A program made the translations under genes and the position numbers. Positions 45,049 through 64,000 of a stretch of DNA of 64,000 nt are shown piece by piece. This DNA is from a virus, in IMG/VR virus record IMGVR_UViG_3300042154_002686, positions 1 to 64,000 of that record. The stretch is one strand, 5' to 3'. The notes beneath the pieces are model-generated. The model was not told the DNA's origin. It worked only from the letters and a program-made list of their open reading frames with translations, and made no database searches. Position 1 is the first letter of the stretch; every line of letters begins with the position of its first letter.

Positions 45049-45173
45049 GACTCTCGCCCAGTTAGAACAGAAACGGAACCCATCGGGTTCCTTTTTTGTT
45101 CCCTGCGGGTAGGTCGCTACAACCGCCATTTTGCTCTCGACTTGGCCGATGCTTCTGCCACTCTGTTGGTCTT

Positions 45174-45359
45174 ATGACCTCCTCCTCCTCCCGCTCGCTG
45201 GCCCTCGCCCTCGCCTCGCACGAGGCCCACCTGCTCGACCTCGCCCTTCGCAGGGCCGAGTGCGTAGCCATGGGCCTCAATCCCGAGGACTATGTCCCCG
45301 CTGACCCCGTCTTTGACGAGGAGGACTATCGTCCCATCGTGCGGAAACGCTACGGGTGA
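45174..45359 (+). CDS. cassette ORF
   Basis: cassette architecture. Confidence 0.65.
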   Translation: MTSSSSRSLALALASHEAHLLDLALRRAECVAMGLNPEDYVPADPVFDEEDYRPIVRKRYG

Positions 45360-48455: not shown

Positions 48456-48597
48456 GGGAAAGGTCTAATCGCCCCCTCACGGGGGCTTTTTATTTAGACC
48501 CCGAGGTAGGTCTGGCAATTGACCGAACGCTCATAAAATGGTGCTCGCTTTTTATGCGTTGGTGGTTCACAGTGTTGGAGTAATCAATAACCCTCCC

Positions 48598-48909: not shown

Positions 48910-49161
48910 ATGTTCGTCTACACCGAAGAATACGCCCGCCAGCAGTCCGAAGCCCGCTCCGAGGCCATCCGTGCCCGTGCGGAATACGAGAAGACCGTCA
49001 CCCGCCAGAACGCCATGGCCGAGGCGTGGGATGCGGTCGAGAAGGCCGAGGACGACTGCCGCAAGGCCAAGGGCACGGTCGCCCGCAAGGAGGCCAAGAA
49101 GGCTCTGGCTTACGCTGACTGGGTCTGGAAGACCATGAACGACCCCAAGTTCAAGGTGTAA
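48910..49161 (+). CDS. cassette ORF (helical)
   Basis: cassette architecture. Confidence 0.7.
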   Translation: MFVYTEEYARQQSEARSEAIRARAEYEKTVTRQNAMAEAWDAVEKAEDDCRKAKGTVARKEAKKALAYADWVWKTMNDPKFKV

Positions 49162-49266
49162 TCCCAAACGAGCCCCTCACGGGGCTTTTTTGTGCCCTCT
49201 GCGGGTAGGTCTGGCGAGCCGCCATTTTGTTGTTGCTTTGCGGGCTGGTTGTGTCACTCTCTTCTT

Positions 49267-49400
49267 ATCGCTCCTGCGATATCAGTCTAATCGGTCTTCC
49301 CAGCAGTTAGTAGCCACTAACTCTAAGGCGGACACTGCTGGGATACGCCTCCCGATAGACTAACATAAGACCACCCCTTCGGGGGTGGCAGTTTGTTTTT
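49267..49400 (+). ncRNA. structured non-coding RNA cassette
   Basis: GTAGG motif, TTGCTT-16-CACTCT promoter and terminator but no ATG; nested stems and a possible pseudoknot. Confidence 0.7.
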
Positions 49401-49407
49401 GTGACTA

Positions 49408-49440
49408 GTGAACATTTGTTCACCATGAACATTTGTTCAC
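49408..49440. promoter_or_regulatory. tandem TGAACATTTGTTCAC palindromes
   Basis: seen directly. Confidence 0.7.
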
Positions 49441-49520
49441 CCTGCGGGTAGGCAACTTATACGACCGAACGCTCATAAGATAAAACTCGCACAAGCCCCC
49501 CGCCATGCTACTCTGATGAC

Positions 49521-49769
49521 ATGGAAATTACTCCACGCCAGCAGGGGCACGAAGCCGCCCGCTTTAACGAAGAAAACGAGCCGTATTTCGGCCCGCAGGA
49601 TGACGGGTGCTACGGCACTGTCCCGACCGACCGCCCTGCCCGCCGCCCAAGGGTGGCAAAGCGGCCCCAGACCTTCGTGGAGGACACCACGCACCCGAGG
49701 GGCACGAAGGCGTGGTATCTCCTCAATAAGGGCTGGCATGCCGCCCAGCACCGCCCATACTGGGACTAA
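49521..49769 (+). CDS. cassette ORF
   Basis: cassette architecture. Confidence 0.65.
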   Translation: MEITPRQQGHEAARFNEENEPYFGPQDDGCYGTVPTDRPARRPRVAKRPQTFVEDTTHPRGTKAWYLLNKGWHAAQHRPYWD

Positions 49770-49897
49770 GGGCGAAAGCCCTCCCGAGCCCCAAGGGGGG
49801 CTCTTTTTTTTACTACGAGGGTAGGTCGCACGAAGGGTCGAAAAAGAAAATTATGGTGTTGCATGAACCGATTTTTTAACCACATTCATAGTCGATT

Positions 49898-50805: not shown

Positions 50806-50968
50806 CCGCCAGTCAGTCCTTCTCAAAGACCCTCACGGGTCTTTTTTTGTCACCACGGGGATAGGTCCGACGGTGCGTAAAATTGGGCAACGATTTTTCT
50901 GGTTTCTGGGACAAGGTGTGTTAGTGTCATGGAGTCGAAAGACACCCAACCCAAACACCCACACACAC

Positions 50969-52136: not shown

Positions 52137-52281
52137 TCCCAATCGGGAGGCTACGGCCTCCCTTTTTTGTGCCCCGTGGGGGTAGGCCGTTGGGTGCGTA
52201 AAAATCGGCAGTCTTTTTTCTGGTATTTGGTCGGGGATGTGGTAGTGTCATGGAGTCGAAAGACACCAAACACCAAAACAT

Positions 52282-52515: not shown

Positions 52516-52665
52516 GGAAGGGGCGAAGGGAGACCCCACGGGGTCTCTTTTTTTGCCCACGGGTAGGCATGTTATATGACCGAACGCTCGTAAAGATTTT
52601 TCTGGTATTCTGGGAGAACTGTGGTAGTGTAGTGGAGTCGAAAGACACCAAACCCAAAAAAACAA

Positions 52666-54212: not shown

Positions 54213-54337
54213 GCCCTTTGACCCCGAGGGTAGGCCCGTTGGTGCGTAAAATTAGACAAAGATTTTGCTGGTATTTGCCAGAGATTAGTGTAGAGTAGTG
54301 GAGTCGAAAGACACCAAACACCAACCCACCCAAACAC

Positions 54338-57027: not shown

Positions 57028-57218
57028 GGGGTGAGGCAGGGGGGAGGTGGGACTCCCCCCTGTTAGTGCCTCCCAAAACCCAAGACCCCCCACGGGGTCA
57101 AAGGGCGGGGTAGGTTCTGTATGAGATGGAAATAAATGAAAATTGTGTTGAACTGTGAACCCCAATCTGCATTATCAGTTGAGTCGAAAGACACCAACAA
57201 ACCAAAAAACACCAAAAC

Positions 57219-57904: not shown

Positions 57905-58738
57905 ATGACCACCACCACCGCCCCCAAGTCCACGGTTGCCGATGTTATCGCTGACCGCTTCATCAAGTCCCTCGAAAACGGAGTCGCCCCTTGGCAAAAG
58001 CCGTGGGCGAGCGTCCGCCCCCAGAACGGTGTCAGCCGTAAGCCTTACAAGGGCGTAAACGCCTTCATGCTGGCCTTCTTCGGGGGTGATGACTACTTCC
58101 TCACTTACAAGCAAGCCAAAGCCCTTGGCGGGCAGGTGGAAGAGGGTGCAAAGGGTATCCCCGTGACCTTCTGGAAGCGTATGGAGAAGAAGGACAAAAG
58201 CGGGGACTATCTGGTTTGCCGATACTACACGGTTTTCCCCGTGTCCAAGTGCGGACTCCCCGACTTCAAACGGGCGAACAAGGTCATTACCTTCTCCCCC
58301 GTAGAACTTGCCGAGGTCGTTCTTGCGAAGAACACGACCCCCGTCAGCCACGGCGGAGCCTCGGCTTACTACACGCCCTCCAAGCATGCAATCCAGATGC
58401 CCAATAAGGAGTCCTTCAAGTCGGTTGCTAACTATTACGCAACCCTCTTCCATGAGATTGGGCACTCCCTCGGGGAGCACTCCTCGGACTCCTTCGGGGG
58501 TGAGGTCTACGCAAAGGAGGAACTTGTGGCCGAACTTTTCGCCTCGATTGCCCTCCAACATTGCGGACTCCTCGAAAGCGTAAACTTCGACAATTCGACC
58601 GCTTACCTCGGGTCTTGGCTGAAAGCCCTTAATGATGATAAGACTCTCATCCAGAAAGCCAGCACGGAAGCCTTCAAGCGGTGGGAGAAACTGATGGGCA
58701 AGGTCGAAGAGGAGGTCGAGGAGGAGGTCGAGGCATAA
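57905..58738 (+). CDS. ardC: ArdC-like antirestriction protein (ssDNA-binding N-domain plus zincin-like domain)
   Basis: LENGVAPWQKPW, YKGVN, TYKQAKALGGQV, YYTVF, AYYTPS, TLFHEIGH, YAKEELVAE. Confidence 0.9.
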   Translation: MTTTTAPKSTVADVIADRFIKSLENGVAPWQKPWASVRPQNGVSRKPYKGVNAFMLAFFGGDDYFLTYKQAKALGGQVEEGAKGIPVTFWKRMEKKDKSGDYLVCRYYTVFPVSKCGLPDFKRANKVITFSPVELAEVVLAKNTTPVSHGGASAYYTPSKHAIQMPNKESFKSVANYYATLFHEIGHSLGEHSSDSFGGEVYAKEELVAELFASIALQHCGLLESVNFDNSTAYLGSWLKALNDDKTLIQKASTEAFKRWEKLMGKVEEEVEEEVEA

Positions 58739-60179: not shown

Positions 60180-60304
60180 TAGTCGTGCCAGAGTCCAGCC
60201 TTACGGCTGGGCTCCATGCCGTGGGGGTAGGTTTCTTGCGGGCATAAAATAGTTCTTGTATTTTGAGCCATTCCATGCACAATGTCTTTCTCATCACCCA
60301 ACAC

Positions 60305-60625
60305 ATGAACAACAACACCACCCCCCTGTCCGCTTTCTTGGCGGAACACACCACCCACCTCCCCTCGGAAGTCCTTGTCCTCTGGATGGACAACCTTAAC
60401 GAGACCGTCCCGACCCGCAAGTTGCTCGACCAAGCGGAAGACGCTTACATTGGCGAGTTCCGAGACTTCACCCGCCTTGCCGAGCATCTGGTAGACGAGT
60501 CGGGCATGCTCTCTAACATCCCCTCCGAAATCGCCAACTATTTCGATTATGAGAAGTATGGCAACGACCTCCGACTTGGCGGGGATGTCTGGGAGTCGGA
60601 TGGGCACTTCTTCCGCAACATCTAA
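60305..60625 (+). CDS. ardA: ArdA-like antirestriction (DNA-mimic) protein
   Basis: EDAYIGEF...AEHLVDESGML.NIPSEIANYFDYEKYGNDL...GHFF. Confidence 0.85.
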   Translation: MNNNTTPLSAFLAEHTTHLPSEVLVLWMDNLNETVPTRKLLDQAEDAYIGEFRDFTRLAEHLVDESGMLSNIPSEIANYFDYEKYGNDLRLGGDVWESDGHFFRNI

Positions 60626-63649: not shown

Positions 63650-63697
63650 CCCCATTTTTGCCACCCCCCCTCACAGGCAAACAACTGGGGTAGGCTT

Positions 63698-63898
63698 TTA
63701 AATAGTTCGGAAGAAGGGGGGCATGCTTTGTAGAAAGAACTTTGCCGCTTCAACCATGTCCTCGTCTGTCCACTTCTTTTCGAGTTCAGCCACCCCAGAC
63801 TCTTTCAAAAGGTTTCTATATTTCTCGCAAGCCATCTTGTGACTGTCGGTTCCGACCGATGAGACCAGTTCAACTGACAGGAGTCTGTATTTATCCAT
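63698..63898 (-). CDS. hypothetical protein, inverted relative to the array
   Basis: own promoter TTGACA-16-CATACT on the minus strand. Confidence 0.6.
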   Translation of the reverse strand: MDKYRLLSVELVSSVGTDSHKMACEKYRNLLKESGVAELEKKWTDEDMVEAAKFFLQSMPPFFRTI

Positions 63899-64000
63899 GA
63901 CGATTAGTATGTATTAAGTTGGGGCATTGTCAATACGCAATTAGATAAATTTAGATTTGACTTTGGCTGTAAATATGTTATCATGTATGGATGCTACTAC

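Follow-up and report, generated by a model that had tools for sequence, protein, structure and literature searches.

The cassette at positions 49203-49400 of the phage genome studied here is best read as a stand-alone gene whose product would be a small structured non-coding RNA, about 125-134 nt long, a reading to which we give a probability of roughly 0.6 on the strength of sequence evidence. The preliminary description of this DNA had proposed a structured RNA rather than a protein, and the present analysis supports that proposal on several counts. The cassette is the sole one of ~47 that lacks an open reading frame (ORF), its payload has no canonical start codon and folds strongly, its flanking promoter and terminator conform to the array pattern, and a diverged relative from run X24 has two compensatory changes in one of the stems (P3) as well as indels that would break reading frames. 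All of the motifs and pairings listed in that description were recovered in place.

The window, that is, the whole stretch of DNA analyzed (64,000 nt), corresponds to the initial 64 kb of a phage record in IMG/VR that is 80.6 kb long and has an estimated completeness of 83%, and the sequencing runs containing it are lake-water metagenomes from several studies. Genes for tail, portal, terminase and primase occupy 1-42.5 kb on the minus strand, and from ~42.7 to ~63.5 kb the plus strand carries ~47 very short transcription units in a row. The G+C content differs sharply across the window (1-64000), being 53-57% in the accessory array versus 41-46% in the structural and replication module. Each array unit is composed of the preceding unit's intrinsic terminator, the heptamer GGGTAGG, a box belonging to one of a few types, a -35-like hexamer, a -10-like hexamer, a short leader and one small ORF. 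The -10-like hexamer has the form (T/C)ANNNT and is located 64-65 nt past the start of the heptamer in 29 of 46 units and 53-55 nt past it in ~7 others; a TTG-like hexamer lies 16-17 nt upstream of it, and a TG is often found just 5' of the -10 (window 42798-63070, plus strand). Terminators number ~50 across the array. The cargo includes an ArdC (PF08401 + PF18818) at 57905-58735 and a short ArdA (PF07275) at 60275-60622. The former is uninformative about the host, as its matches reach only 32-40% identity and are scattered across many phyla.

We consider the array hypervariable because the genes flanking the RNA cassette are absent from the related records searched and because the closest long relative (G019, L020:1-8000; primase 92% identical) has an analogous array with another upstream motif. 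In that relative the promoter-terminator array has AAAATAGTTCT-type boxes in common with the present one, a different upstream motif stands in the place of GGGTAGG, and the cargo is entirely different. Two further heptamers, in 63688-64000 and in G000:C1:64550-65900, are followed by no convincing plus-strand ORF, the longest being 52 and 31 aa, respectively.

The RNA cassette follows the array pattern throughout, with terminator, GGGTAGG, box, -35 and -10 hexamers in fixed register, payload and terminator. Its left border is the intrinsic terminator of the preceding cassette (49170-49195, plus strand; stem GAGCCCC/GGGGCTT followed by a T-run), which closes a unit with an 83-aa ORF at 48910-49161. 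The heptamer at 49203-49209 (plus strand), the first of the elements common to the ~47 cassettes, is not touched by any of the differences listed for the X24 relative. At 243 nt this is the shortest cassette in the array and the sole one without an ATG-initiated ORF of at least 25 aa; with any start codon admitted, its longest ORF has 19 aa and begins upstream of the -10. The earlier observation that the payload contains no ATG can be extended, since ATG, GTG and TTG are all absent in every frame from 49267-49384 (118 nt), a depletion seen in 0.9% of shuffles (P = 0.009). A terminator-to-terminator screen for other cassettes lacking an ORF was too loose, and even the 49203 cassette was not flagged by it.

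The array promoters all escape a generic sigma-70 scan, and the promoter of the RNA cassette, which does not have the sigma-70 consensus, is therefore argued from the array pattern. It is located at 49233-49260 on the plus strand and consists of TTGCTT (49233-38), a 16-nt spacer and a TG-preceded CACTCT (49255-60). The CACTCT stands 53 nt past the heptamer start, a hexamer and a register identical to those of the protein-coding cassette 45107, and cassette 43075 also has CACTCT, one nucleotide further on. The segment 49203-49263 is 69% identical to the 45107 promoter without gaps (E 2.8e-4). This similarity ends at 49263, where the payload starts; for the payload itself the phage genome contains no paralogue. 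An alignment of ATC at 49267 with the ATG of cassette 45107, as a mutated start codon, was considered and rejected, as it needs a 3-nt shift and the similarity stops at 49263. Cassette 45107 itself (45107-45356, plus strand), which shares the promoter class of the RNA cassette, has its ATG only 9 nt past the -10 CACTCT, and its mRNA is probably leaderless.

Transcription would start at about A49267, 7 nt past the -10, which is also the first base of the 5'-terminal hairpin, and would end at about 49395-49400, from which the predicted length of ~125-134 nt follows. The intrinsic terminator (49371-88, plus strand) has the form CCACCCC-UUCG-GGGGUGG and is followed by CAGTTTGTTTTT; its 7-bp stem with six G-C pairs is closed by a C(UUCG)G tetraloop, has a pair probability of 1.0 and, together with the tail CAGUUUGUUUUU, would make up the 3' end of the RNA (49371-49400). 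A terminator scan calls this terminator, and the T-run is present on the plus strand only. Its proximal U-tract is weaker than those of its neighbours, as CAG precedes the Us. The position and design of the array suggest that expression may be early, as had been proposed.

Between these two borders, the payload is predicted to form two elements on the plus strand. The 5'-terminal hairpin P1 (AUCGC-UCCU-GCGAU, 49267-49280) is followed by a central 78-nt rod at 49284-49361 that contains P2, an asymmetric internal loop, P3 and an apical region. In P2, AGUCU(A)AUCGG at 49284-94 pairs with CCGAUAGACU at 49352-61 (6+4 bp, with A49290 bulged); the internal loop has UCU on one side and UACGCCUC opposite; P3 is a perfect 10-bp stem between 49298-307 and 49334-43; and the apical region spans 26 nt (49308-49333). 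The core (49265-49366, 102 nt) has a minimum free energy (MFE) of -39.4 kcal/mol versus -22.6 +/- 3.3 kcal/mol for 200 dinucleotide shuffles, none of which reached it (z -5.1), and z is -5.6 when the terminator is included. P1, P2, P3 and the terminator all pair with probabilities of 0.85-1.0.

The minus strand folds equally well (z -5.6) because all pairs are Watson-Crick, and the strand was therefore assigned from the promoter and from the terminator T-run that occurs on the plus strand only. The same property bears on the view that the nested inverted repeats work at the level of DNA, as a duplex or cruciform protein site, a recombination site or an origin. Stems of pure Watson-Crick pairs without G-U would be as good in DNA as in RNA, and two tandem TGAAC-N4-GTTCA dyads adjoin the element at 49409-49441 (period 17, 1.9 copies, 100% match). 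We nevertheless hold a DNA-level element to be very unlikely, since the structure lies exactly in the payload slot between array promoter and terminator, identical tandem dyads occur at three other cassettes that have no RNA element, the structure is present in single copy in the genome, and the cumulative GC skew makes no turn here. The dyads, which stand just 5' of the heptamer at 49446, resemble operators and are probably part of the next cassette rather than of the RNA. Tandem dyads of this kind are also found at ~43789, 45356 and 46089, so that four heptamers in total are directly preceded by them; they have the form of a Cheo-type LexA box, and at three of the sites they take the terminator's usual place.

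The strongest comparative evidence comes from run X24, an RNA library made from a viral metagenome, in which a single Logan contig of 953 nt aligns to 49059-49772. It differs there at 88 letters (identity roughly 85%) and keeps the order of upstream gene end, RNA cassette and downstream gene. The relative is known through its listed differences, and 49337-49400, with the 3' strands of P2 and of the proposed pseudoknot, lies beyond the stretch covered by the substitutions listed. Among the differences listed, two pairs of P3 have changed on both sides, with 49307 T>C accompanying 49334 A>G (U-A to C-G) and 49305 A>T accompanying 49336 T>A (A-U to U-A). At a neutral divergence of ~14% we estimate the probability of two such paired changes by chance to be of the order of 0.002-0.01. 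Paired changes within an inverted repeat can also arise from template switching between its arms. Two or three other pairs of P3 (49298, 49302 and 49303 with their partners) are apparently lost in the relative. The list is free of differences across 49265-49296, which covers P1 and the 5' strand of P2, except for the deletion of the linker base 49282, and it is likewise free of them across 49308-49320 and 49325-49333 (AAGGCGGAC). In the promoter, the listed changes affect the spacer (49248-51) and flanks and include neither the -35 nor the -10 hexamer. Any reading frame would be disrupted by the indels listed, which are deletions of one base at 49282 and 49339 and of 3 nt at 49343. As the contig spans promoters and terminators, it is uninformative about a discrete transcript and may derive from DNA.

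Near-identical copies of the locus are present in lake metagenomes from further studies (runs X2 and X4). Run X16, which is also labelled RNA, yields only short pieces elsewhere in the window and none on the RNA locus, and thus gives no evidence either way. The protein encoded downstream has one relative (P0002, 74% identity), found in Logan assemblies only.

These data can be set against the possibility that the locus is a decayed or empty cassette, in which a protein gene was lost, the promoter-terminator shell was left behind and the hairpins are fortuitous or leftover. Such an outcome would suit a hypervariable array in which the RNA and its flanking genes are absent from related records, and it would agree with the short length of the cassette. 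The fold is also less exceptional when it is compared with the rest of the array: the core is only ~2.2 standard deviations more stable than its G+C content predicts in comparison with 100-nt windows in other payloads, and it ranks fifth among the cassettes, where the windows above it may contain an uncut terminator. An empty shell is nonetheless unlikely in view of the z of -5.1 against the element's own shuffles, the perfect 10-bp stem together with a 10-bp outer stem, and the depletion of start codons in all frames. It is further opposed by a relative at ~85% identity that retains blocks without listed change and has two compensatory pairs, and no residual similarity to any coding cassette can be detected.

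A tiny peptide gene with a non-canonical start was weighed as well, and a CUG-initiated frame of 29 codons does exist (49274-49363). The deletion at 49282 in the X24 relative, however, breaks this frame, which then meets UAG at 49308, and no called protein at the RNA locus was found among 5.8 billion sequences, which were searched with the translation of an overlapping 57-aa frame. The preliminary description had raised a small ribozyme as one option, and a compact fold with a possible tertiary contact would be in keeping with a self-cleaving RNA. Even at E <= 10, on the other hand, the locus matches none of the self-cleaving families in Rfam (hammerhead, twister, twister-sister, pistol, hatchet, HDV-like, hairpin), and a self-cleaving ribozyme or a tiny peptide gene is in our judgement highly improbable.

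The tertiary contact itself, a proposed pseudoknot between AGGCG (49326-30) and CGCCU (49346-50), did not gain support. The complementarity is exact, but matches of at least 5 nt between unpaired segments occur in 4-5% of shuffles. The 3' linker, UA, is 2 nt long and would have to cross the 10-bp P3, which by established pseudoknot geometry would leave the contact strained. For the two segments to form an ordinary helix, P3 has to be blocked, which costs 13.7 kcal/mol. In the X24 relative the 5' partner AGGCG is unchanged and the 3' partner lies beyond the stretch covered by the listed substitutions. The inner hairpin P4 (UAGU-AGCC-ACUA, 49308-19, plus strand) fared no better, as its pair probability in the ensemble is 0.0; its sequence is unchanged in X24, so nothing argues for a hairpin there.

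The family had not been recognized at first sight, and this agrees with Rfam 15 (4227 models, including riboswitches, sRNAs, 6S, Y RNA and EAR), which gives no match at gathering scores in the whole window. At E <= 10 only two matches are found in 49100-49550, both on the terminator hairpin: PhotoRC-I with 13.8 bits (threshold 45) and whalefall-1 with 11.2 bits (threshold 37). ARAGORN calls no tRNA or tmRNA gene in the window, and the payload has no 7-nt loop on a 5-bp stem. Tandem repeats like those of ToxI are lacking, the operator pair at 49409-41 being the sole tandem repeat in 49150-49500.

Homologues were sought by sequence, by structure and by context. Neither GenBank phages nor PLSDB plasmids gave a BLAST match to the locus. 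The complete records of 25 related phages in IMG/VR were searched by BLAST and with a covariance model (R1) built from the RNA cassette's own sequence, and the one hit was at terminator level. The flanking proteins are absent from the five longest related records, and no locus with both of them was found in IMG/VR. Pattern searches led to the same result: the pairing pattern of P3 has nine matches in IMG/VR, all at chance level by R1; the P1-P2 block has none in IMG/VR and 13 in JGI metagenomes, none of which passes R1; and the apical block TAGTAGCCACTAA-N4-AAGGCGGAC has no match in IMG/VR or in one genome each of 185,579 species. The heptamer combined with box B occurs in only one other IMG/VR contig, which holds no homologue of the RNA. 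The RNA family has two known members so far, the locus itself and its X24 relative.

A position directly behind a promoter and directly in front of a terminator, in an array with ~50 terminators, would also suit a cis-acting leader, either a put-like processive antiterminator or a ligand- or protein-controlled attenuator of the next cassette (49446-49769). The weak proximal U-tract of the terminator and the retention in X24 of the order of RNA and downstream gene point the same way, and if the 5' arm of the terminator is blocked, its 3' arm can pair with GCCUCCC (~49346-54). This antiterminator conformer is, however, 12.7 kcal/mol less stable and destroys P2, with kinetic control conceivable. 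The next cassette, moreover, has its own heptamer, box, array-type -35 and -10 hexamers and two operators, and no riboswitch aptamer or EAR-type family matches the locus in Rfam. Taken together, this makes a cis-acting leader quite unlikely.

For a stand-alone small RNA, the course of events can be sketched as follows. Host RNA polymerase would start from TTGCTT-16-CACTCT at about A49267 and stop at the intrinsic terminator at about 49395-49400. The hairpin at the very 5' end would probably shield the transcript against decay that depends on the 5' end, and the rigid 78-nt rod of P2 and P3 would present the 26-nt apical region, which is largely invariant in one relative. A rigid rod with an invariant apical region would point to a protein or a complementary RNA as the partner that recognizes it, and we favour a role in trans that the RNA would exert through its conserved apical region (UAGUAGCCACUAA...AAGGCGGAC) and its C-rich internal loop.

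What it would act upon can be suggested in graded terms. Tentatively, the RNA could sequester a host RNA-binding factor as its mimic or decoy target. A more speculative suggestion is a base-pairing regulator with the 9-nt invariant AAGGCGGAC as its seed. Within the phage genome, k-mers complementary to the RNA occur at chance level, and with 47 phage translation-initiation regions the duplex energy (-37.3 versus -34.7 +/- 3.1 for a shuffled-RNA null) singles out no target. A host-directed role is plausible given the ArdA/ArdC neighbourhood, in which the two genes lie 8.5-11 kb from the RNA amid dozens of uncharacterized small proteins. The idea of a decoy against host defence, already put forward in the preliminary description, is drawn from the presence of ArdC and ArdA in the same array. 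That the RNA is anti-defence cargo, a structured decoy that would neutralize an RNA-binding or RNA-guided host immune protein, must be called doubtful, and it is just as questionable whether it would represent a class, carried in a swappable cassette, that is unrelated to CRISPR-repeat mimics, antitoxin mimics and phage tRNAs.

Several known phage RNAs invite comparison. A phage pseudo-ToxI is said to have been described by Blower et al. in 2012 as a mimic of the antitoxin RNA that acts against ToxIN abortive infection. ToxI is a tandem array of 36-nt units. The present RNA would resemble pseudo-ToxI as a phage RNA that serves as a decoy for a host defence protein, whereas it differs in having no internal tandem or direct repeat. 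The put RNA of phage HK022, reportedly characterized by King et al. in 1996, is a cis-acting processive antiterminator. It is formed by two similar stem-loops, one base apart. Compared by description, put and the present element are both structured RNAs without an ORF, are of similar size and lie just behind a phage early promoter and before terminators, but here a short 5' hairpin is followed by one long rod and the next cassette is served by a promoter of its own.

Small non-coding RNAs of lytic phages have been mapped as transcripts in Pseudomonas phages (PMC10914365) and by Grad-seq of PhiKZ (PMC8545117). Like the RNA proposed here, they are short stable products of early or accessory regions that run from promoter to terminator and have mostly unknown functions; they were seen as transcripts, in contrast to the present one, which is predicted from its sequence alone (PMC10914365; PMC8545117). 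RNA anti-CRISPRs (Racr; solitary repeat units) are small non-coding RNAs of phages that are defined by their likeness to CRISPR repeats and measure ~28-37 nt (Camara-Wilpert et al., 2023, PMC10651486). The locus shares with them that it is phage-encoded, solitary, placed directly behind a promoter with no adjoining cas genes, and clustered with anti-defence genes, here ArdC and ArdA, but its RNA is about four times as long as a repeat (PMC10651486). The part compared, the 26-nt apical block, is without a match in one genome each of 185,579 species, and the RNA, for which likeness to a CRISPR repeat would be the defining feature, is not classed as a Racr here. The predicted RNA is described as a new family with two members, belonging to a kind of element that is already known.

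There are good grounds for regarding the locus as a candidate phage small RNA. The uniform promoter-terminator frame of the array amounts to a natural expression vector, and a payload in that frame that has no ORF, is structured and is conserved therefore makes a clean candidate for a functional RNA. RNA cargo of phage accessory arrays has been overlooked because gene callers skip RNA and because mining is directed at protein counter-defences. Should the RNA indeed prove to act on the host as a decoy or regulator, the few RNA-based counter-measures known from phages would gain a further family, and a search of such arrays for RNA payloads would be justified.

Two observations on the wider array may be added. 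Other contigs of run X24 join positions 48495/50217 and 48537/50111, omitting ~1.6-1.7 kb, which suggests relatives in which the intervening cassettes are absent or replaced and fits with a shuffling of cassettes. A short leader element able to form a hairpin, GGAGTCGAAAGACACC with a CA-rich run after it, recurs in five cassettes whose cargo is unrelated; it lies in their 5' untranslated regions, at approximately 50920-50945, 52240-52265, 52622-52647, 54290-54315 and 57170-57195 on the plus strand.
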